Below are positions 1 to 36,661 of a stretch of 45,246 nt of DNA, piece by piece; position 1 is the stretch's first letter, and every line of letters begins with the position of its first letter. The notes beneath the pieces were generated by a model. It was not told where the DNA came from. It worked only from the letters and a program-made list of their open reading frames with translations, and searched no databases. The translations under genes and the position numbers were made by a program. Source of the DNA: a virus (taxonomy: Duplodnaviria > Heunggongvirae > Uroviricota > Caudoviricetes); the IMG/VR virus record IMGVR_UViG_2778261297_000003. One strand, written 5' to 3'.

Positions 1-321
1 CTACATTACAGGCGATTTATCGTCTTTAACTTGGTTAAGTGTATGTGTAAGAACGCCGTGTACCGTTACGTCATTCAGAGCTTCCCCTTCTATCGCTTCA
101 CCATCTTCAGTGATCAGCGCGTGGCCCATTAGCTTCACGAACTGGTTTCTCCCGTCCATGCTAACCAGCAGCGTATCCCCTCCTTCTGGCTTCAGACTGA
201 CGTTAATAACGGCCCAGCCGCATGAAGTTTCAATAACCCGGCAGTTGTTATCTACACCGCAGATAACATCTATCGTCATGCGCTGCTCCTGGTAATCCAT
301 GGCTGGCGATGGAAATCCCAT
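1..321 (-). CDS. UmuD'-like protein (S24 LexA/UmuD fold, lacks N-terminal cleavable arm, probably non-catalytic)
   Basis: 106-aa ORF. N-terminus MGFPSPAMDYQEQR matches UmuD starting at the Cys24/Gly25 RecA-mediated cleavage site (UmuD sequence recalled from memory). The position of the GDSM serine nucleophile reads SCGW; a lysine in FVKL is retained. RBS GGGGAGGG lies 7 nt upstream of the ATG. Confidence 0.5.
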   Translation of the reverse strand: MGFPSPAMDYQEQRMTIDVICGVDNNCRVIETSCGWAVINVSLKPEGGDTLLVSMDGRNQFVKLMGHALITEDGEAIEGEALNDVTVHGVLTHTLNQVKDDKSPVM

Positions 322-407
322 TAGAAAACCCTCCCCATGTTTCGCAGGATCCAGTATCGATTCTCACTTCCGTTTGTCGTCTTATCGGCGAAGTCCGGCT
401 GGTACCG

Positions 408-563
408 CTAGATCCATGAATTTGCATCCGCCTGGCTGAAATGCCAGTGCCTCTCCTGCAGTTCAGCGATAAATTTGTCTGTATGCAGGCAGAGATAGCC
501 CTTCGGGTTTTGCTGTATGACCGCAACAAAAGCAGCACGAATATCCGGTTGACGAGGCATGTG
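408..563 (-). CDS. small hypothetical protein (51 aa), SOS-box proximal
   Basis: ATG at 561-563 preceded by a GAGGG RBS; the LexA-box-like palindrome lies about 25 bp upstream. The longer 78-aa track ORF is not supported upstream of this ATG. Confidence 0.4.
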   Translation of the reverse strand, partial: HMPRQPDIRAAFVAVIQQNPKGYLCLHTDKFIAELQERHWHFSQADANSWI

Positions 564-585
564 CGCACCCTCACTCGCTAATTGA

Positions 586-601
586 CTGTATACACATACA
601 G
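586..601. promoter_or_regulatory. LexA operator (SOS box) CTGTATACACATACAG
   Basis: Matches the CTGT-N8-ACAG consensus with an AT-rich spacer; sits between the divergent dinI-like gene and the 51-aa ORF. Confidence 0.65.
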
Positions 602-660
602 TAGTATTTTTATAAAAACAGATCAAGCACAGGCAATTTTTCACTAATGAGAGGATCGGT

Positions 661-927
661 ATGTTTGTTGAACTCGTTTATGACAAGCGTAATGTTGAGG
701 GGCTCGAGGGGGCCAGAGAGATCATACTGGCCGAGCTGACGAAGCGGGTGCACCAGATTTTCCCTGATGCCGAAGTGAAGGTGAAGCCGATGCAGGCGAA
801 CGGCTTGAATAGCGATGCCAGCAAAAGCGATCGTGAAAAACTGAACCACATGCTGGAGGAAATGTTTGAAGAATCCGATATGTGGTTGGTTTCTGAGTTC
901 CCGACTGTTCGCCAAGCCGGGCTGTAA
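661..927 (+). CDS. dinI: DinI-family DNA-damage-inducible protein
   Basis: 88-aa ORF MFVELVYDKRNVEGL...EEMFEESDMWLVSE, typical of prophage DinI homologues; LexA box about 60 bp upstream. Confidence 0.85.
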   Translation: MFVELVYDKRNVEGLEGAREIILAELTKRVHQIFPDAEVKVKPMQANGLNSDASKSDREKLNHMLEEMFEESDMWLVSEFPTVRQAGL

Positions 928-970
928 AATGGTTCAGGCTGCCAGCTTCAATATTCACTGGCGGCCTGCA

Positions 971-1531
971 TTATGTCTTACCACTACCTACCGGAAATTT
1001 TCGGTAGAGTGTTGAAACCCCTACGTCGTAAATTATTGCCACACGCTGGCGAGATTCCCCTGCTGAGATCAATCTCCCTGCCTGCGCCCATTGTTCATCC
1101 GTTAATTTGGGCCTGCGACCGCCGAACCGCCCTTTTGCTCGCGCAGCTGCTAAACCCGCCCGGGTGCGTTCAACAATGAGCTCTCTTTCCATTTCTGCCA
1201 AAGCCCCCATAACATGAAAGAAGAATCGGCCCATCGGCGTAGACGTGTCTATGCTGTCGGTCAGGCTGCGAAAATTAATGCCCCGCTCTCGCAGCTCCTC
1301 CACAAGAACGACAAGATGCCGCATGCTTCTACCGAGCCGATCGAGTTTCCAGACCACCAGCGTGTCTCCCTCCGACAAGATACGGAGTACCTTTTTGAGC
1401 CCCGGCCTCTCCGATGTCTTTCCGCTTATCTTATCTTCAAAAATCAGTTCACATTCTGCGCTATCGAGCGCATTTCTCTGTAATGCGGTGTTCTGGTCAT
1501 TTGTTGACACTCTCACGTAACCAATAAGCAT
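971..1531 (-). CDS. serine recombinase, DNA invertase (Hin/Gin/Pin/Cin family)
   Basis: 186 aa from MLIGYVRVSTNDQN (catalytic Ser motif) with a C-terminal HTH (VGVSTLYRKF); near-colinear with Hin/Gin. RBS AGGGG upstream of ATG at 1529-1531. Confidence 0.9.
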   Translation of the reverse strand: MLIGYVRVSTNDQNTALQRNALDSAECELIFEDKISGKTSERPGLKKVLRILSEGDTLVVWKLDRLGRSMRHLVVLVEELRERGINFRSLTDSIDTSTPMGRFFFHVMGALAEMERELIVERTRAGLAAARAKGRFGGRRPKLTDEQWAQAGRLISAGESRQRVAIIYDVGVSTLYRKFPVGSGKT

Positions 1532-1585
1532 TGTTTTATCCCCTGCAAAAAGCAGAAAGCATGCCACTAGTGAGCAGAATGGTCA

Positions 1586-2375: not shown

Positions 2376-2949
2376 CGTCCGGCGCTGTGCTGGTATCTGT
2401 TGCCGTCACCGCGTCAATGTAATCCAGCACAGCGTTAAGTCGGGTGTTTTCTGGCTGCGTCAGCTTCCGCCCGGCCTGTAATTTCAGTTGAATCAGACTG
2501 ATGGAAGCCATTGCTGCATTAATCAGTGACTGGCGCTGTGCTTCTGCCGCGTCTAGTGCGGCGCTATGCTGTGCCTCGGTATCCGTCACCCATTTCTCAC
2601 CATCCCATTTATCGTATGGCGTTAATGGGGCGATAGTGGTTGTATTTTCAGGGTAATCACCCGGAACTGTGATTTCTTTGGTATCTCCCGTTTCGGTACT
2701 ATAGACAACTTCACCGCGATGGTCTGGCACATATTCCCATGAATTTAAATCTACAGAGCGACAGATTGCATAACCAGCTTTATGTGTACCTGGTGCATCC
2801 AGACAGGAACATGCCGGGATACCGACGCCGACAGCGAGATATTCAGTTGATGTAGAAATATATTCCCGCGTTTCGCCATCATAGTTATGTACGATGATTT
2901 CCCCATCATTTAAAGCGTAACCGTCTTTTCCCAAAATAGCCTGTTCCAT
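2347..2949 (-). CDS. tail fibre assembly protein (Tfa, active orientation)
   Basis: 200-aa ORF directly downstream of the fibre gene with the conserved Tfa C-terminal motif. Confidence 0.8.
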   Translation of the reverse strand: MEQAILGKDGYALNDGEIIVHNYDGETREYISTSTEYLAVGVGIPACSCLDAPGTHKAGYAICRSVDLNSWEYVPDHRGEVVYSTETGDTKEITVPGDYPENTTTIAPLTPYDKWDGEKWVTDTEAQHSAALDAAEAQRQSLINAAMASISLIQLKLQAGRKLTQPENTRLNAVLDYIDAVTATDTSTAPDVIWPELPEA

Positions 2950-3729
2950 TTATGCAGCCCTCACAATGTAGTTAAATGCAATGTTTCGCGGGCTACCATC
3001 ACCGGCGCCGGAACTGACATGATTGGTTCTATCCATTCGTTTACTGTCATTTGTTGTTCCACTCCCATCCTTCCACGAATACAATAACCCGCCATCGCCA
3101 ATGCTCAACTGCACCGCAAATACGGATGAACCGGATGAATAAACATCTCCAGCCATGAGTGGGTTCCCTGTCCATCCATGCATTTCATGGTTATGTTCAA
3201 GGATAGATGCTGCCTGACTTGAAAGCAGCAGTCTCGCGGAATCAACACCTCGCCCATCATCCCACCCGCGAATAAACTCACCGCGCAAATCCGGTAATTT
3301 TAACTTTGGGTAAGCCTTTGCCAGTTTTGGGTACTCTTCGGCAGAAAAAGGTGCACCGTTGCATTTCAGCCAGCCTGTTGGTGGTGTGGCTGAAGGCCAC
3401 GGAACAGGCACACCAACGGGTAACGCTGAGCCTTCTCCCAAACCAAGGTTTGTGAGAGCCGTAGAAATCGCCGCTGCACCATCTGATTTGATATCGGCAA
3501 ATGGGTTTGCACGGCTCAGTGTGAGTTTTTGAATGGCTTTTAAAACCTGAGTCATATCGTTAATGTCGAGCGCCAATCCTGCTGACTCTACGATATGCGC
3601 TAACTCTTCCTGCATGGCATTAAACGCTGCTGCCCGCAGCCTCGTTGCGGCAATACCACCAGCAACACTTCCATCAGTATATTTGCCATCCTGCGTTGCA
3701 GTGGCTTCGACTTGCCCGATTCGGAGCAT
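2950..3729 (-). CDS. tail fibre protein (constant N-terminus plus invertible C-terminus)
   Basis: 259-aa ORF; the crossover site lies about 93 codons in; GAGGAT RBS upstream of the ATG at 3727-3729. Confidence 0.8.
   Translation of the reverse strand: MLRIGQVEATATQDGKYTDGSVAGGIAATRLRAAAFNAMQEELAHIVESAGLALDINDMTQVLKAIQKLTLSRANPFADIKSDGAAAISTALTNLGLGEGSALPVGVPVPWPSATPPTGWLKCNGAPFSAEEYPKLAKAYPKLKLPDLRGEFIRGWDDGRGVDSARLLLSSQAASILEHNHEMHGWTGNPLMAGDVYSSGSSVFAVQLSIGDGGLLYSWKDGSGTTNDSKRMDRTNHVSSGAGDGSPRNIAFNYIVRAA
3431..3456. repeat. inversion crossover site, right (inverted copy)
   Basis: Reverse complement CTCACAAACCTTGGTTTGGGAGAAGG shares the 19-bp core AAC(N)TTGGTTTGGGAGAAG with the left site; located at the constant/variable junction of the tail-fibre ORF (encodes ...NLGLGEG...). 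Confidence 0.7.
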
Positions 3730-25311: not shown

Positions 25312-26364
25312 TTATTCCCCTGTTAACGCCCTTATTTCCCCCACCGTCTGGCTAAACCTGTCCTTCTCGAGTTCAACGCCGATAGCCTGGCGGCCAAGTT
25401 CCAGCGCGATTTTCACGGTCGAACCGGACCCCATAAAGAAATCAGCCACCACATCACCAGGCTTACTGCTGGCGTTGATGATCTGCCGCAACATGTCAGC
25501 GGGTTTTTCGCATGGGTGTTTACCTGGGTAAAACTGAACGGGTTTATGTGTCCAGACGTCGGTATAAGGAACGGATACGGAAACAGAGAAATGCCGCCGA
25601 AGCGATTTGTACTCTTCGAGCAGCTCTGAATACTTGCGATTTAACGAATGCCACATAGCCACCAGCTGGTGGTGTGGTGTTGCCAGTTCGCCGTTCTGGT
25701 GCTTTTCGATGGCTACCTGCGTGAAAAGGGACTGAAGCTTCCGGTAGTCTGATTCATTCGGTAATTGCCACTGGCTACCGCTGAACCAGTGAGACACCAT
25801 GTTCTTCTTTCCAGTCGCATCGGCTATTTGTTTTGAGGTTATGCCAAGCGCTTCACGTGCATCCCGGAAATAAGAAATTAGGGGAGTCATTACATGCTGC
25901 TTCAGCTCGCTTCCCTTCTCAGCGTACCCGTCGCTCTTTGGTTTATACGGCCCCTGGTAATGCTCAGCGAACAGGATGCGCTCTGTTGCAGGGAAGTAAG
26001 AGCGCAGGCTCTCTTTATTACAGCCATTCCAGCGGCCCGACGGTTTAGCCCAGATGATGTGGTTCAGGACGTTGAACCGCTCACGCATCATGATCTCAAT
26101 GTCTGCCGCCAGACGGTGACCTGAGAAAAGATAAAGACTGCCGGCAGGTTTAAGCACTCGCCAGAATTGTGCGAGGCACATATCAAGCCAGCGAAGATAA
26201 TCCTCATCCCCTTTCCATTGATTGTCCCAGCCGTTGGGTTTCACTTTGAAGTACGGCGGATCCGTGACTATCAGGTCAATGAAGTTATCAGGGAGAGTTG
26301 CGATGTATTGCAGGCTATCAGCGTTGACTAACTCAACACTGTTTATATTTACAGTATTTTTCAT
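25312..26364 (-). CDS. DNA methyltransferase, beta-class (N6-adenine or N4-cytosine; DPPY motif)
   Basis: 350 aa; motif IV VTDPPY near the N-terminus and motif I FFMGSGST near the C-terminus. Confidence 0.8.
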   Translation of the reverse strand: MKNTVNINSVELVNADSLQYIATLPDNFIDLIVTDPPYFKVKPNGWDNQWKGDEDYLRWLDMCLAQFWRVLKPAGSLYLFSGHRLAADIEIMMRERFNVLNHIIWAKPSGRWNGCNKESLRSYFPATERILFAEHYQGPYKPKSDGYAEKGSELKQHVMTPLISYFRDAREALGITSKQIADATGKKNMVSHWFSGSQWQLPNESDYRKLQSLFTQVAIEKHQNGELATPHHQLVAMWHSLNRKYSELLEEYKSLRRHFSVSVSVPYTDVWTHKPVQFYPGKHPCEKPADMLRQIINASSKPGDVVADFFMGSGSTVKIALELGRQAIGVELEKDRFSQTVGEIRALTGE

Positions 26365-28848: not shown

Positions 28849-29910
28849 TTACGCTTTTGTTATTACGCCGATCGCCAGCGCTCGATTCATAAATCGGAAT
28901 AGCAGCTCCAGCTGGGTACCGTGTTTTTTCTCGAACGCTGCAACATCAGCATGTAATTTGTCGTGACACTCTCTGCACAGAGGGATCACGAACAAATCGT
29001 GGGCTTTAGTGGCGGTACCGCCCATGCCGTGACCAATGACATGGTGTGGATCATCCGCTGGCCGCCGGCAACCTTCACAGGGCTGGGTTTTAGCCCACCG
29101 GGTATAGTCCTCATTCACCCACCTGCGGTGTTTTGGGCGCAACATGAATGATTCAGGGGATTCAGGATCCGCATGCAGAGCCAGAACCTGTGGCTGGTCA
29201 TAGGCCACTTCCTGATTTGTTCCATGCTTTAAATGCGCAGCCGTGACCGCAGGGGTGACCTTCTTCTGCAAAATGTTTTTTGTCGGTGGCATCGGCACAA
29301 TGTCACTTTCGCGATATACGGATAAAAACGGCTCATCCGGTAAGCGAAGCGCATGCTGGGCCATCCTTTCCGTGATTGCATCAGCAATGCCTGAGTAAAC
29401 GGCCCACCAGCACAATTCACCGAGGGATAGTTCACGCTCGTTGTTGTAGCCAAGCGAAGACAGGATAGAACTGATCAGCCAGTTAATGAGATTACGCCGG
29501 GCCAGTTCTGCCAGCGCCGCGGTGGTTTGCTCGCGCAGCTGGTTATCGCAATGCCAACAGAGCAACATTGATCCAGGGGGATGTCGCATCGTTACCAGCT
29601 CATGATGGTGATAATTAGTGTGCGGGTACTGGCATTCCTTCACGTTACGCTCTAGCCAGGATTCCAACCCGGACAAACCGCCTGCTGCACGGATAACTCT
29701 CTCGTCGGTGAAGAATTCCTCGAGGGACTTATCTTCTGCCAGCGGCTGCCGGGCATCAGGGACGAGCCCCGACGGAAGCCCAGCCATGCTTTTTGGCTGA
29801 GGCTCCACCAGCACACGCCCCTGTTGAAACAAAGACATCAGTTCGCTACCCGGCTTTAACAGCACAAGCCCAAGGCGCGGAACAGTCTCGGCTGTAAACA
29901 GTCCTCTCAC
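28849..29910 (-). CDS. DUF968-family protein with C-terminal HNH-like Cys/His motif
   Basis: 353 aa; C-terminus ..CEGCRRPADDPHHVIGHGMGG...CRECHDKLH resembles HNH/zinc-binding nuclease motifs; typical nin-region gene. Confidence 0.6.
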   Translation of the reverse strand: MRGLFTAETVPRLGLVLLKPGSELMSLFQQGRVLVEPQPKSMAGLPSGLVPDARQPLAEDKSLEEFFTDERVIRAAGGLSGLESWLERNVKECQYPHTNYHHHELVTMRHPPGSMLLCWHCDNQLREQTTAALAELARRNLINWLISSILSSLGYNNERELSLGELCWWAVYSGIADAITERMAQHALRLPDEPFLSVYRESDIVPMPPTKNILQKKVTPAVTAAHLKHGTNQEVAYDQPQVLALHADPESPESFMLRPKHRRWVNEDYTRWAKTQPCEGCRRPADDPHHVIGHGMGGTATKAHDLFVIPLCRECHDKLHADVAAFEKKHGTQLELLFRFMNRALAIGVITKA

Positions 29911-30599
29911 GCGGCATGCCCCTTAGCGATGTGTGCCGTCCACAGGCCGCCGATCCACTCGATGCCTTTGGGTGTAAAACGTGCCTGGCTAAAGGCGTAG
30001 TTTGTTTCGCTCGTAGTGCCAGTTTTCACTTCAAACCGCCCGGCAGCAATGTGCTGGTGCCGAGGTGTCAGCACTCCACTGAGCCGGTACAAAATGCCGC
30101 TCTCAATGAGGAACAAGCGGAAATCGGTCTCTTTGGCCTGCAACAGCTTTGCCACCTGGCGGAAAGACATTGAGCCTTTGGCAGTACAATATCGATCGAC
30201 AAACTCAACTTTCGGCGCGGCAGCGGCTAACTGCTGGCTGAGTTGTTCTTTCTGCTCGGCCAGATCCGCGGCGAGACGTAATGCCTCCGGCAATGTTTGC
30301 GGGACACTTACGGCCTGGCTGTTCTCCAGCTCTTGCCAGCGATCGACAACAGCGGCGGTAAATTCTGGCGACAGCCTGGCGACGATCACCAGAGAATCAC
30401 GTTTGTTAAACCAATACTCCTCGTAGGTTTGCCCGTTTTGCGGGTGTGTGTAGGGGGTGTGCGCCAACGGCGCGGTTAAAATACCAGCAGATGCAAGGCG
30501 CTCAGCTGAGCGCTTCACATCACCATGTTTGCTCTGCACCAGCCTGGCAATTTCACGGCTGGACATTGTCACAACACCCTTAGCGGTTAACTGATTCAT
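29907..30599 (-). CDS. antirepressor (Rha N-terminal domain plus KilAC-like C-terminal domain)
   Basis: MNQLTAKGVVTMSSREIARLVQSKHGDVKRSAERL resembles Rha; C-terminal half resembles antirepressor KilAC domains. Confidence 0.7.
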   Translation of the reverse strand: MNQLTAKGVVTMSSREIARLVQSKHGDVKRSAERLASAGILTAPLAHTPYTHPQNGQTYEEYWFNKRDSLVIVARLSPEFTAAVVDRWQELENSQAVSVPQTLPEALRLAADLAEQKEQLSQQLAAAAPKVEFVDRYCTAKGSMSFRQVAKLLQAKETDFRLFLIESGILYRLSGVLTPRHQHIAAGRFEVKTGTTSETNYAFSQARFTPKGIEWIGGLWTAHIAKGHAA

Positions 30600-30613
30600 G
30601 CTATTTCTCCATA

Positions 30614-32551
30614 TCAGGCGGCTGCACCCGCCTTTTGATTTGCACATAATTCAGGAAGATTTGCTTCTACCAGCGCACGAGCGAACGGCGGCGGTACTGC
30701 GTTACCACAGCGCGCTACCTGCTTGTCTTTGGCGTAACGATTGCCGCGATAGTCCTGATCGATAACGTAGCCGTCAGGGAAGCCCTGCGCCTTATAAAGC
30801 TCATGCGGTTGCAGCATGCGCATTCCGATATCGACGATCTGGTACTTAACCCCCTCGATCGTCACCAGCCATTCATCCTCGCTATCACCGCAGTAGGTTT
30901 CGAGGAATGTCCGGACCTCGCCAACGTGCTGGCCACCAGCGGTAATCGTCGGCATAGGTGTATCCATGGTCTGACCGTCGCTGCAGGTTCCGCGCAGCTT
31001 CACCAGGTGCGACGCAACTACCGCGTGGTGATCAACAGTAGTGACTGAGTGGGCAGGCTCATCCATACCAACACCCGGCCCCGTGTAATTCCCACCATAG
31101 TGCTTCGCCAGGAACGCGCTCACCGTTGCAAACTTATTACCACCAGCAGTGACCGTGCCGAGCGGGTTATTCAGTTGAAGAACACGCGGTTCTTGCCCTG
31201 GGCGTTCGCCGTACCCCATCTGGATCAGTGTTGGAGTTACCAGCTGCGACTTACCGCCACCACCTGCAGTAATCGTCGCACTCGGTTCGTCAGCCCTGTG
31301 CCCAACACTGGCTCCAAACTGGCGGGCGATGACCGGCGCAACCACGCACGCGCGGGACTGCTTGAGGATTGTATGAGCGGGTTTATCCAGCGGGCGCGGC
31401 TTTGCCTGGTACTCACTGCCGCCATTGCCAGCCAGGAACGGTGTCAGGGCGGCCTCAACTACGCCAAGCGCATGCCCATTCCCGCCCGGGCGCGCCGACG
31501 TACCAGCGGTGACAGTTGGTACCGGCTCGGTCACTGGCTGCCCGGTGGCCCCGGTGCGGAATTTAGTAAGATGCGGTACCGCCAGTGCGTAGCCATGCTT
31601 TTTAGTGATGGTCTGCAATGGCTCTAACAACGATTGCCCGCGGAAACAGTCATAACCTCCTTTCGTCGTGGTGTGGTTACACTTCACGATGAAAGGTGAT
31701 GCGCTTTCGATAACAAAGCGCTGGATGCCGCGCGCGATACGTTTGAGCGTATTTTCCGCCAGCGGCTTTTTGCGGTCGAAGATGGACCGGGCCGGGATAT
31801 TCCAGTCAATGCACTCCGCCGCGGTACGCCATGGCGCCAGCTTGCCGCTTTGTACTTCCAGTGATTTTGGATCCCCATGAGTCGCTTCAGGCCAATGAAT
31901 CTTGCGGCCGTCACAGCGCATGACCATGAAGAAACGCTTTCTGATCGTCGGCGCGCCGTAGTCACATGCGCGCAGCTCCCGATAATCAACCTCATAACCA
32001 AGCCCGGCGATCAGCTGTTGCGCCTGCTGGCCGTGCGGCTCAATGGCAAGGAATTCACAAACCTCAGCCAGCGCAGGGTGATTCGCCGCGATCCCCGTCG
32101 ACAGCATGCCGACAAATGCCTCGAATGTTTCGCCAGCACGCTCAGGATCTGGGCGTAATTCTTCATCCAGCAGCGGGCCCCATGTCTTAAACTCTTCGAC
32201 GTTCTCCAGCATCATGACGCGGGGACGTACTGCCAGCGCCCAGCGCAGGACAATCCACGCCAGCCCGCGAATCTCTTTCTTAACCGGCTTAGCGCCCTTC
32301 GCCTTGGAAAAGTGGCGGCAGTCAGGGCTAAACCAGGCCAGACCGACAGGTTTACCGCTGGTGGCTGCGCTTGGGTCAACGTCAAACACCGACTCGCAAT
32401 AATGCAGCGTGTCAGGGTGATTCGTCTTATGCATCGCAATAGCGTTTTCGTCGTGGTTGATAGCGATATCCACGCTACGCCCGATCGCCAGTTCAATGCC
32501 GGTACTCGCGCCGCCGCCACCAGCAAAGTTATCAACGATAATTTCACGCAT
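30614..32551 (-). CDS. DNA (cytosine-5)-methyltransferase, large, with repeated TRD-like modules
   Basis: About 645 aa from MREIIVDNFAGGGGAS (motif I); SPDC..FS.AKG (motif IV-like), MLENV (motif VI), RKRFFMV (motif VIII), CGNAV (motif X); four TxTAGG-containing repeats between motifs VIII and X. Confidence 0.8.
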   Translation of the reverse strand: MREIIVDNFAGGGGASTGIELAIGRSVDIAINHDENAIAMHKTNHPDTLHYCESVFDVDPSAATSGKPVGLAWFSPDCRHFSKAKGAKPVKKEIRGLAWIVLRWALAVRPRVMMLENVEEFKTWGPLLDEELRPDPERAGETFEAFVGMLSTGIAANHPALAEVCEFLAIEPHGQQAQQLIAGLGYEVDYRELRACDYGAPTIRKRFFMVMRCDGRKIHWPEATHGDPKSLEVQSGKLAPWRTAAECIDWNIPARSIFDRKKPLAENTLKRIARGIQRFVIESASPFIVKCNHTTTKGGYDCFRGQSLLEPLQTITKKHGYALAVPHLTKFRTGATGQPVTEPVPTVTAGTSARPGGNGHALGVVEAALTPFLAGNGGSEYQAKPRPLDKPAHTILKQSRACVVAPVIARQFGASVGHRADEPSATITAGGGGKSQLVTPTLIQMGYGERPGQEPRVLQLNNPLGTVTAGGNKFATVSAFLAKHYGGNYTGPGVGMDEPAHSVTTVDHHAVVASHLVKLRGTCSDGQTMDTPMPTITAGGQHVGEVRTFLETYCGDSEDEWLVTIEGVKYQIVDIGMRMLQPHELYKAQGFPDGYVIDQDYRGNRYAKDKQVARCGNAVPPPFARALVEANLPELCANQKAGAAA

Positions 32552-33878
32552 TGACGGCCCCCTGCATGCTGTTGAAGAGACCACCAGCGGTCGTGATAAT
32601 TTCACTCGTCGGCATACGTTCGAGCCACAGCTGGTTGATATTGGCTTTCAGCTTGTTCTGCTGCGAAACAGGTAGAGCGTCAGCCCCTTCAATCTGGTTA
32701 AACACCAGTCCAACCTCAAGAGGCCAAACGCGCGATTCGTTTAACGCCTTGTCCTTTGATTCCTGCGTCTCACGGACATGGGCGCGGATCCCCCGAATAT
32801 TTGACCATTTGGCTTTATCCAGGCTTTCCATGGTCGCGATGAATTCACTGTGGTTAATGCCGTATTCTTTCGCAGACTCAACGGCAACCGTGCGTAACCG
32901 CTCTGACATGTCTTGTTTCACGTCATCGCTATCAAAGGGCAATGTTTCCAGCCATGCATTAACACCCACCAGGATGCTCTCGCTGATCAGCTTTTTCGCT
33001 CTGTCGATCGTCAGCGGTGAAACATTGGTAAATTCAGGGTTTTCCAGAGAGTCGGCAGCCCAGGTATGACCAAACTTTGACTCGCTGAAGGTGTACTCGT
33101 CTTTCTTGCCGAACGCCGCGACAACACAGGCCCAAGCCTCTACACCGCTGGTTTCCAGAATGGCTTTTTGGGTTAATGGCAGTTCTGCCTCTGATTTCTC
33201 CGGCACTACCTCAGCGTCCAGCTCCGGCGCCGCATCAGTTTGCGTTCTTCCCACGGCAAATTGGGCCAGCGACATCGCAGCACGGCCTTTGGCCTCCAGG
33301 TCGGTGCGGTTGATGTAACTGAAACGCTCACCCCGCCATGTTTTGTCGAAGACCACGATAGCGCCAGCAAAAAATGCGCTGGTGGGCTGCTGCTTTTCGT
33401 CTTTCGGCACGAACCATGTAGGAAGATCGAAACCAATTCGGCCACGGATGAATGTGACGTGATCTGCCTCTTCCGGCCACCACGTCTCACTCGTCGCAGA
33501 CTTAATGAGAAAAACGTACCGTCCACCCTTTTCTCGCATTGCCATAGCGTGGTTAATGATGTGGGTCATTCCGGTAACGGCCTGCTTGTCGTGGTACTGA
33601 GAGCGGCTGTAAGGCGGGTTGCCAAACCCGGCACCACCGAGTTCTGCCAGACGCTCTGACCAATCCTGCGTCAGGGCATTATTTTCAGCCGTGTACCAGG
33701 TTGGGCACTTCGCGTTGCTGTCGTCGGCAAAAAGGTCCAACACCAGAGGGCCGAACATCGCATTGATACCCCAAAACAACAGATCCGGAGTGCGCCATTG
33801 ATCGCCGACCTCTTTCAACTCATGGGCTGGTTTTGAACGCAGTTCAGCCAGCGCGCGGCAGTATTTGCTTTCAATCAT
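32544..33878 (-). CDS. phage Dam-type N6-adenine methyltransferase (NPPY) fused to a 270-aa C-terminal domain of unknown function
   Basis: N-terminal region WRTPDLLF...GFGNPPYS matches phage Dam family; C-terminal extension has no recognised motifs. Confidence 0.7.
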   Translation of the reverse strand: MIESKYCRALAELRSKPAHELKEVGDQWRTPDLLFWGINAMFGPLVLDLFADDSNAKCPTWYTAENNALTQDWSERLAELGGAGFGNPPYSRSQYHDKQAVTGMTHIINHAMAMREKGGRYVFLIKSATSETWWPEEADHVTFIRGRIGFDLPTWFVPKDEKQQPTSAFFAGAIVVFDKTWRGERFSYINRTDLEAKGRAAMSLAQFAVGRTQTDAAPELDAEVVPEKSEAELPLTQKAILETSGVEAWACVVAAFGKKDEYTFSESKFGHTWAADSLENPEFTNVSPLTIDRAKKLISESILVGVNAWLETLPFDSDDVKQDMSERLRTVAVESAKEYGINHSEFIATMESLDKAKWSNIRGIRAHVRETQESKDKALNESRVWPLEVGLVFNQIEGADALPVSQQNKLKANINQLWLERMPTSEIITTAGGLFNSMQGAVNA

Positions 33879-36034: not shown

Positions 36035-36661
36035 ATGGAAACGGTTGGTCAGCGCATTAAAGCCCTACGCAGGGTTACAAAAACCTCTCAAAAAGAACTG
36101 GGTAAGTTCTGCGGGGTTAGTGACGTAGCGGTGGGTTATTGGGAAAAGGATGTGAATATCCCAAACGGGGAATCACTGGTTAAGCTGGCTAAATTCTTCA
36201 ATACATCAATAGATTACATTCTTTACGGCACTGAATTTGAAGGTACCCTCATAACTAAAATGAGGCGTGTGCCCGTGATTTCCTGGGTTCAAGCTGGGCA
36301 GTTTACGGAATGTAAAGCCGCTGATTTATTCAGTGATGTCGATAAATGGGTTGAAACATCACTTCGCATTGGGGATAGCTCGTTCGCTTTAGAGGTCAAA
36401 GGGGATTCAATGACCAATCCAAATGGCCTCCCAACAATCCCTGAAGGGGCAACCGTTATTGTTGATCCAGATGCCGAACCCCTTCATGGCAAGATTGTGG
36501 TTGCGCGTATTGATGGCACTAACGAAGCGACTGTTAAAAAACTTGTCATTGATGGCCCACAAAAATTTTTAGTGCCACTAAATCCTCGCTACCCCAACAT
36601 CCCGATCAATGGTAACTGCCTCATTATCGGCGTTGTTAAAGGCGTTCAGTACGAACTCTAA
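36035..36661 (+). CDS. cI: CI-like repressor (HTH plus S24 LexA-type autopeptidase domain)
   Basis: 208 aa; N-terminal HTH (..SQKELGKFCGVSDVAVGYWEKD..), Ala-Gly cleavage site (VQAGQF), GDSM serine motif and downstream KK lysine. Confidence 0.9.
   Translation: METVGQRIKALRRVTKTSQKELGKFCGVSDVAVGYWEKDVNIPNGESLVKLAKFFNTSIDYILYGTEFEGTLITKMRRVPVISWVQAGQFTECKAADLFSDVDKWVETSLRIGDSSFALEVKGDSMTNPNGLPTIPEGATVIVDPDAEPLHGKIVVARIDGTNEATVKKLVIDGPQKFLVPLNPRYPNIPINGNCLIIGVVKGVQYEL

Follow-up and report, generated by a model that had tools for sequence, protein, structure and literature searches.

A predicted LexA-controlled accessory cassette with a short UmuD'/HumD-like gene at the end of an E. coli prophage

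A phage-borne, LexA-controlled and pre-processed UmuD' is a concept known since HumD of phage P1. In the P1 record, HumD has 129 amino acids (aa) and starts with MGFPSPA, a LexA site lies 20 nucleotides (nt) upstream and is shared with the divergent lxr gene, and a note states that the protein 'functionally complements E. coli UmuD''. The HumD family is taken here as NCBIfam NF051876 ('HumD family translesion DNA polymerase') and also includes N15 gp26, phiKO2 gp23, HK639 'UmuD' and HK140 gp28. The cellular counterpart, E. coli UmuD (MEROPS S24; PF00717; PDB 1umu, 1ay9, 8gmt), is cleaved in a RecA-mediated reaction at C24/G25 (PMC13076628). Prophage accessory loci of another kind, the Gifsy dinI-gfoA/gftA-irsA operons and the tum genes of 186, PSP3 and Fels-2 (PMC3121763), combine a LexA box over the promoter -10 with a DinI homologue and a small SOS-induced protein. 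Here, we compare with these systems the first 927 nt of the virus record IMGVR_UViG_2778261297_000003 (Caudoviricetes), a stretch of 45,246 nt that is referred to as a whole as the window. These 927 nt hold a gene for a short UmuD'-like protein of 106 aa, a partner gene, a LexA box and a divergent dinI-like gene.

Our reading is that of a LexA-repressed bidirectional accessory cassette (a 'moron') making a HumD-like UmuD' surrogate, and as a combined statement we regard it as evenly poised between right and wrong. The part that concerns anatomy and regulation is held with high confidence, while the function of the 106-aa protein as a surrogate subunit for DNA polymerase V (Pol V), argued by analogy, is put forward tentatively. 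LexA binding, expression and all protein-protein interactions of the module we infer from the DNA and its predicted products. The features on which the reading is built are the following.

1-321, minus strand: complete open reading frame (ORF) for the short UmuD'/HumD-like protein, 106 aa; PHROG 3469; assigned by profile and fold matches
321-560, minus strand: conserved 79-aa partner gene, PHROG 3893 (function unknown); nonsense pseudogene or truncated allele in the window
330-334, minus strand: Shine-Dalgarno motif GGAGG, read from the sequence, 8 nt upstream of the UmuD'-like ATG
408-410, minus strand: in-frame amber codon TAG at the position of Glu51 in relatives; cuts the 79-aa ORF to a 51-codon ORF (50 residues, 408-560)
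582-610, plus strand: predicted dinI promoter, a consensus match only; -35 TTGACT at 582-587, 17 nt, -10 TATTTT at 605-610
584-603, no strand: LexA (SOS) box GACTGTATACACATACAGTA, common to both divergent promoters; core CTGT-N8-ACAG, CTGTATACACATACAG, at 586-601
598-626, minus strand: predicted leftward SOS promoter; -35 TTGATC at 621-626, 17-nt spacer, -10 TACTGT at 598-603 inside the LexA box
661-927, plus strand: DinI-family protein, 88 aa, an MsgA-like prophage paralogue; Pfam DinI; PHROG 189; 'DinI family protein' in the Prokaryotic Genome Annotation Pipeline (PGAP)

Homology, fold and catalytic positions of the 106-aa protein

The protein encoded at 1-321 starts with Met followed by the equivalent of UmuD Gly25 (MGFPSPA...), and its N-terminus, MGFPSPAMDYQEQR, aligns residue for residue with UmuD G25-R37, in agreement with the first-pass annotation of this DNA, a model's reading of the letters alone, which had placed the start of a UmuD-like ORF at the post-cleavage N-terminus of UmuD'. 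A Pfam search with the 106-aa protein returned no family at E-values up to 1, the gathering threshold of S24 (PF00717) was not passed, and the precomputed Pfam entry is '-' for all 120 homologues listed from a family of 408 clusters of about 105-107 aa. Profile and fold methods overturned these weak single-sequence searches, and it is on their account that the protein is accepted as a UmuD'/HumD homologue. It matches PHROG 3469, 'UmuD-like protein', with an E-value of 8e-48. Alignment with hhalign of a 22-sequence family profile to UmuD and three HumD-type proteins gave a probability of 98.8% (E 4.9e-17) over residues 1-106, and the family profile found UmuD in the PDB with E 4.8e-6 (residues 2-97 against UmuD 25-137). 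The AlphaFold2 model has a mean predicted local distance difference test score (pLDDT) of 79.7, with low confidence for the N-terminal 20 residues as would be expected of a flexible arm. In Foldseek the top PDB matches of this model were UmuD' (1umu and 1ay9, template modelling (TM) score 0.60-0.66) and the LexA C-terminal domain; taken together these matches (probability 1.00, TM 0.57-0.66, E about 4e-3) place it in the S24 beta-barrel fold. By profile and predicted fold the 106-aa protein is thus a full-length UmuD'/HumD homologue and not merely the bearer of a 14-residue motif; a likeness to UmuD that ended after the first 14 residues, which the first-pass annotation had named as grounds for abandoning its claim, is not what these alignments reveal.

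In the profile alignments 11-12 residues of UmuD, at about positions 58-70 (DSMIDG and ISDGD), are missing from the 106-aa protein, and the strand RVIETSC, which pairs with YFVKASG of UmuD, precedes the gap. Because the deletion spans the Ser60 loop, Ser60 is deleted and not replaced by residues of the SCGW motif: the serine nucleophile is indeed absent, as had been proposed, but the proposed substitution of SCGW for GDSM was read in the wrong register. The neighbouring S33 varies across the family (S, T, D or N), and the equivalent of Lys97 (K63 in FVKL) is K, R or I. The Ser-Lys dyad of S24 peptidases (S60/K97 in UmuD) is accordingly lacking in the 106-aa protein, and so are an Ala/Cys-Gly self-cleavage site and the N-terminal segment that would carry it, the stop codon of the upstream ORF overlapping the ATG. 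From its sequence, the protein would be made already 'cleaved' and, having lost the serine loop, should neither be able nor need to process itself. Variation at these catalytic residues is seen in HumD-type proteins too, with S/T/T at Ser60 and K/M/K at Lys97, and for this reason the loss of the dyad is seen as the relaxation expected in a protein that never needs self-cleavage, and not as something special to the 106-aa protein. In engineered UmuD', the S60A exchange is reportedly tolerated, as Nohmi and colleagues are said to have found in 1988.

The best-conserved segments of the family are the N-terminal tail, IET..GWAVIN, ALITEDGEAIEG and the C-terminal strand VHGVLTHT, which aligns with VFGVVIHV of UmuD; the tail and the C-terminal strand are also the segments best conserved with UmuD'/HumD. 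The C-terminal strand (VFGVVIHV) together with the L40-L44 region is what we take to be the dimer interface in UmuD'2 structures. Length and position of the ORF are conserved from Enterobacter to Pantoea and Erwinia, and the ratio of non-synonymous to synonymous substitution rates (dN/dS) is roughly 0.4-0.5, a rough estimate obtained from an equal-length ungapped alignment in which distant pairs are saturated.

Compared with E. coli UmuD and UmuD', the protein shares the predicted fold, the predicted LexA regulation and a near-identical tail (GFPSPAxDYxEQR), whereas it lacks the 24-residue pro-arm, the Cys-Gly site and Ser60, has a variable Lys97 equivalent, has no Pfam match and no umuC partner gene. 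The likeness to P1 HumD extends further: both are phage-borne, start with MGFPSPA without an N-terminal pro-segment, have no adjacent or cognate umuC and lie immediately behind a LexA box that is shared with a divergent gene, and both end in a C-terminal DDxxPV[IM] tail (...DDKSPVM in the window) that is absent from UmuD. Unlike HumD, the window protein has 106 instead of 129 aa, the serine hairpin being deleted and the equivalent of UmuD 100-126 shortened, and the short form usually stands behind a translationally coupled 79-aa gene, which P1 lacks. In E. coli ABWA45 (2641-3269 of its stretch) and in phage HK140 (1641-2269) the slot is filled by a 129-aa HumD-type gene, preceded by the same 79-aa ORF and control region; the identity with the window begins at nt 292, which marks a recombination junction inside the MGFPSPAxDY codons. 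This arrangement points to a cassette swap in which short and long UmuD' forms behave as interchangeable alleles, and it offers the best indirect argument that the two forms do the same job.

The LexA box and its divergent transcription units

The 20-mer GACTGTATACACATACAGTA agrees with the LexA consensus TACTGTATATATATACAGTA at 17 of 20 positions. Taken from the window alone the evidence for this box is weak, as two strict boxes were found against 0.5 expected and at least two occurred in 10 of 100 shuffles. The other one, CTGTTTATATTTACAG at 26339-26354, is a second perfect CTGT-N8-ACAG, which lies in the first codons of an N6/N4 DNA methylase ORF (25312-26364, minus strand) and may be due to chance. 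To place the cassette box in context we refer to a survey with one genome per species, which returned 80 related loci, 79 of them used for the LexA-box count, from Enterobacter, Klebsiella, Raoultella, Kosakonia, Citrobacter, Kluyvera, Buttiauxella, Pantoea, Erwinia, Tatumella and other genera. Of the 79, 60 from many genera have a strict CTGT-N8-ACAG within the 120 nt that precede the operon's start codon, at a distance of 5-25 nt from this first ATG, and most of the remaining loci have a strict or one-mismatch box nearby; over the 476 kb of these same loci only 22 other boxes occurred. It is this conserved position, and not the statistics of a single window, that makes the box credible. The first-pass annotation, which had located it at 586-601 between a dinI-like gene and a divergent ORF, is borne out on this point, and the locus shows what is seen in the SOS regulon, namely a CTGT-N8-ACAG that overlaps a promoter and is conserved in orthologous loci.

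The leftward promoter is predicted to have its -10 within the box, the same layout as in the experimentally defined p95 promoter of phage 186. In a box-anchored alignment of the window and 69 loci, many have a TTGATC or TTGA-type hexamer about 17 nt upstream of TA-CTGT, although only the central TT and one A of this -35-like hexamer reach consensus level. On the other side, the box spans the spacer and -35 of the predicted dinI promoter. In four related loci (L038, L040, L049 and L050) dinI and the UmuD'-like gene are directly divergent and no 79-aa gene separates them. In place of one perfect box, the intergenic regions of these loci have a pair of imperfect LexA-like boxes, TACTGG...ATACAGTA and TACTGTGTTTTTA[AT]CC[AG]G, some 60 nt ahead of the UmuD'-like ATG.

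The leftward unit consists of two genes. What had been taken for an independent 51-aa ORF turned out to be the front of the conserved 79-aa ORF, cut by the TAG at 408-410; PGAP likewise treats the window copy as a pseudogene, interrupted by a stop codon. Intact versions of the ORF occur in phage Flotzy and in E. coli 1500 and CX21; the amber allele recurs in E. coli ECONIH4 and the other E. coli genomes with 100% identity to bases 1-1000 of the window, as well as in ABWA45. The TAA stop of the 79-aa gene overlaps the UmuD'-like ATG (TAATG), and in about 56 of the 80 loci a 79-82-aa ORF ends 1 nt inside, or 1-2 nt before, this ATG, while about 24 of 80 have the UmuD'-like gene without the partner. 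Judged from this junction the two genes form a translationally coupled operon, and since GGAGG is present at 330-334 the UmuD'-like gene can presumably still be translated despite the nonsense codon upstream. A programmed frameshift across TAATG was considered and rejected, as the window copy contains no slippery heptamer of the form X XXY YYZ and relatives differ at the junction, some having an overlap and others a 1-2-nt gap. Conserved at the core of the unit are the LexA box, the gene for the short UmuD' and, in most cases, the 79-aa gene.

The 79-aa protein is a candidate for the winged-helix class, which is marked by an H1-S1-H2-H3-S2-S3 topology; its predicted fold is tentatively read as winged-helix-like. 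No relatives of the family were found in Pfam, NCBIfam, PADLOC or among PDB sequences, and comparison with hhalign to 186 Tum and to the LexA N-terminal domain gave a probability of 0.1% for each, so that a Tum-like or LexA-N-terminal-domain-like identity was rejected. An exhaustive profile search of 1.84 billion representatives returned 209 matches, almost all of them stand-alone proteins of about 79 aa; the few matches of 148-187 aa that run into MGFPSPA are read as frameshift or deletion products, and the idea that the pair was split from an ancestral single-chain repressor of winged-helix and S24 domains found no support, the 209 matches being essentially all stand-alone. In NCBI and UniRef many members carry the name 'DNA polymerase V', which is not backed by a match to any NCBIfam or Pfam model and has probably spread from the neighbouring gene. 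In phage HK225 (1935-2234 of its stretch) a homologue, annotated with 99 aa, is followed by a DNA invertase and the UmuD'-like gene is missing, hence the partner can occur alone.

On the rightward side, the ORF at 661-927 matches Pfam DinI (PF06183) with 79.5 bits (E 2.4e-22) against a cut-off of 24.2, over profile positions 2-63 of 63, so that the dinI homologue named in the first-pass annotation holds. The score to the NCBIfam DinI equivalog NF007893 was 41.1 bits; since this misses the cut-off of 111, and PGAP assigns no more than 'DinI family protein', the gene is regarded as a paralogue and not as the dinI orthologue. With E. coli DinI and Salmonella MsgA the protein shares the full-domain Pfam match, the acidic C-terminal helix EEMFEESDMW and the predicted LexA regulation; it differs as a prophage paralogue below the equivalog cut-off and by a C-terminal extension of about 9-10 residues past the DinI match. 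DinI proteins bind RecA filaments. As an integral partner of the module, DinI did not hold up: no more than about 10 of the 80 loci have dinI next to the operon, and although it is also a neighbour in HK140, HK225, mEp390 and phiKO2, it is an occasional neighbour outside the conserved core.

Possible functions of the cassette

In the undamaged cell, one LexA dimer on 584-603 would block both the leftward -10 and the rightward -35 and spacer. Upon DNA damage, LexA cleavage stimulated by activated RecA (RecA*) would derepress both promoters. The rightward transcript would give the DinI paralogue, which would modulate RecA*, and the leftward coupled operon would give the 79-aa winged-helix-like protein (truncated or non-functional in the window copy) together with the short UmuD' of 106 aa. 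The latter would dimerise and fill the UmuD' slot as P1 HumD does, with UmuC, RecA* and UmuD as possible partners. A Pol V-type accessory function would in this way be available as soon as LexA is cleaved, bypassing the slow RecA*-dependent processing of UmuD, and lesion bypass on damaged phage or host DNA would be favoured during induction.

Several observations count against a HumD-like function. The 106-aa protein scores 33.6 bits with NF051876, whose cut-off is 120, and is aligned there over residues 1-63 only, whereas P1 HumD itself reaches 221.5 bits; the identity to HumD is 28% over the full length of the window protein (pairwise E 8e-11) and that to UmuD 24% over 75 residues; the S24 Pfam model is not matched, and a search of PDB sequences with the single protein gave a marginal hit (E 0.06, about 40 residues, a 14-40-residue match). 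About 23 residues fewer than in HumD, including a surface hairpin, may mean that binding to UmuC or RecA is lost. A HumD model leaves no role for the conserved 79-aa winged-helix-like partner, which is not found in P1, and the inactivation of this partner by the amber codon makes the window copy a partly decayed one, so that the module may be decaying here. Finally, the short family already bears the label 'UmuD-like' yet is uncharacterised.

One alternative is that the protein acts on RecA* itself, as a non-cleavable UmuD'-like pseudo-substrate in the filament groove which, with DinI, tunes the co-protease toward LexA, CI and UmuD and thereby sets the timing or threshold of prophage induction. 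The S24 domains of LexA, lambda CI and UmuD dock in this groove, and PDB 8gms, 8gmt and 8gmu are among the fold matches; the module recurs beside paralogues of the RecA-binding DinI under the same or similar LexA boxes; the repressor of the prophage is itself a RecA*-dependent S24 self-cleaver, to which a competitor would matter; and phage 434 Hex, which blocks RecA-mediated repressor cleavage, provides a precedent (PMC3564112). We nevertheless consider this unlikely, as dinI is so rarely the neighbour, the missing loop forms part of what S24 substrates expose around their active site, which leaves the RecA contacts hypothetical, and HumD, the closest of the characterised relatives, carries the annotation of a positive substitute for UmuD'. 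UmuD/UmuD' heterodimers are a natural shut-off of Pol V, and in a different sense the short protein could be a dominant-negative anti-mutator that heterodimerises with host UmuD or UmuD', or titrates UmuC, so that Pol V mutagenesis is suppressed during phage replication. In favour of this, the elements for dimerisation seem to be conserved, productive assembly of Pol V may suffer from the large deletion, and mobile elements are known to suppress their own Pol V homologues (PMC8460599). The swapping of HumD-type and short-type genes in one slot, with HumD annotated as a positive factor, makes this explanation very unlikely.

The coupled partner gene suggests another family of explanations. The 79-aa winged-helix-like protein and the S24-like dimerisation domain could be the halves of a LexA/CI-type regulator split at the cleavage-site Gly, acting as an SOS-induced DNA binder or poisoning S24-type repressors through C-terminal-domain heterodimers. 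The tight coupling in most loci across genera, the possible winged helix of the partner and the start of the S24-like protein exactly at the cleavage-site Gly would all fit, and small LexA-controlled antirepressors near dinI are established in Gifsy (GfoA/GftA) and in 186 (Tum) (PMC3121763). This two-piece regulator is quite unlikely, however, given that the 79-aa family resembles neither Tum nor the LexA N-terminal domain, that no natural single-chain ancestor emerged from the exhaustive search (the longer matches look artefactual), that the UmuD'-like gene does without the partner in P1 and in nearly a third of the loci, and that the CI of this prophage cleaves itself and needs no antirepressor. 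The CI gene (36035-36661, plus strand) encodes HTH_3 and Peptidase_S24 domains with the Ala-Gly site VQAG|QF, the serine in GDSM and the lysine in VKKL, a canonical self-cleaver and not the repressor without a self-cleavage domain that an antirepressor would call for; it is on this ground that the antirepressor reading is weakened, and the earlier suggestion that the small ORFs are Tum/GfoA-like antirepressors is disfavoured by the self-cleaving CI and by the missing similarity to 186 Tum. The cassette shares with the Gifsy and 186-type loci the features named at the outset, but its 79-aa protein is unrelated to Tum, its dinI is divergent and alone and not part of an antirepressor operon, and its resident CI is self-cleaving. 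The Gifsy-2 match sought for comparison with gftA proved to be a truncated dinI remnant beside a 228-aa ORF and not the dinI-gftA locus. A trans-acting antirepressor role of the module on other prophages is conceivable (compare PMC3121763). In its widest form, the pair would serve not Pol V but an SOS-only, 'pre-cleaved' LexA/CI-like factor made of a winged helix and a dead S24 domain, which binds DNA or poisons S24 repressors or the RecA* co-protease and so sets induction or prophage cross-talk; to this we assign a low probability.

The HumD-like surrogate, our preferred reading, is not new as an idea. Of the earlier proposal of a phage-supplied, pre-processed and non-proteolytic UmuD' mimic, the substance is supported by the homology, the start at the cleavage-site Gly, the missing dyad and the conserved LexA box, and the novelty falls to P1 HumD; the gene is moreover already annotated as 'UmuD-like protein' with a HumD note in the RefSeq record of mEp390 and in PHROGs. 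In the literature searched, we found no description of the short serine-loop-deleted subfamily, of the conserved 79-aa partner or of the strictly conserved SOS promoter. What is added here is a testable three-part unit of conserved SOS promoter, 79-aa partner and 106-aa UmuD'-like protein, along with two annotation corrections: the name 'DNA polymerase V' of the 79-aa family has no model behind it, and neither the Pfam S24 nor the NCBIfam HumD model picks up the 106-aa family. If the protein is HumD-like, a LexA-triggered bypass of the RecA*-dependent UmuD processing checkpoint would be present in many prophages of Enterobacterales (E. coli, Enterobacter, Klebsiella, Pantoea, Erwinia), and this would matter for SOS mutagenesis, for the evolution that antibiotics induce in lysogens and for the survival of phages whose DNA or host has been damaged. 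If it is not, the protein and its winged-helix-like partner would represent a new type of SOS or induction modulator on an S24 scaffold.

Prophage setting and neighbouring genes

Bases 1-1000 of the window are 100% identical to at least five complete E. coli chromosome records, ECONIH4 among them. In ECONIH4 a tRNA-Pro gene beside yejM lies about 105 bp from window position 1, and the region continues into a Cin/Pin-type invertase followed by tail-fibre and baseplate genes. Farther into the window there are genes for lysis and for a Q antiterminator, methyltransferases, a CII-like protein, the CI-like repressor and an integrase. Because of the tRNA-Pro/yejM flank and the phage gene content across the window, the cassette is placed at the attachment-site (att)-proximal end of a lambdoid-type E. 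coli prophage inserted beside tRNA-Pro/yejM, with no further gene between the leftward operon and the prophage end. The lambdoid phages mEp390, HK140, HK225, Flotzy and Eeyore carry related DNA in the corresponding accessory position, bordered by the tail-fibre genes and attP/int. Comparison of the tRNA-Pro flank with the integrase end of the window gave no repeat of at least 14 nt that could be an att core, a tRNA scan of the window found none, and an Rfam scan of positions 1-1700 gave no meaningful match.

Between the dinI stop and the convergent invertase gene the DNA can form a hairpin and is listed as follows.

934-968, plus strand: GC-rich hairpin, possible terminator, without a U-tract

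A second stable hairpin, also without a U-tract, lies in the same gap at 986-1008, and the RNA fold of 915-1015 has an energy of -37.7 kcal/mol (z -3.45). The Cin/Pin-type serine invertase (Resolvase and HTH_7 domains; 971-1534, minus strand) adjoins an invertible tail-fibre segment of about 1.8 kb, the ends of which are 24-nt inverted repeats (1589-1612 and 3432-3455, 92% complementary, hix/gix-like) and within which alternative tail-fibre C-termini and genes for assembly proteins are encoded on opposite strands. A Rha/KilAC (ANT) antirepressor-like ORF at 29907-30647 (minus strand) is found in the same prophage as the canonical self-cleaving CI repressor. Three DNA methyltransferase ORFs, all on the minus strand, are present in the prophage: an N6_N4 type (25312-26364), a C5-cytosine type of 663 aa (30614-32605) and a Dam-like type of 444 aa (32544-33878).

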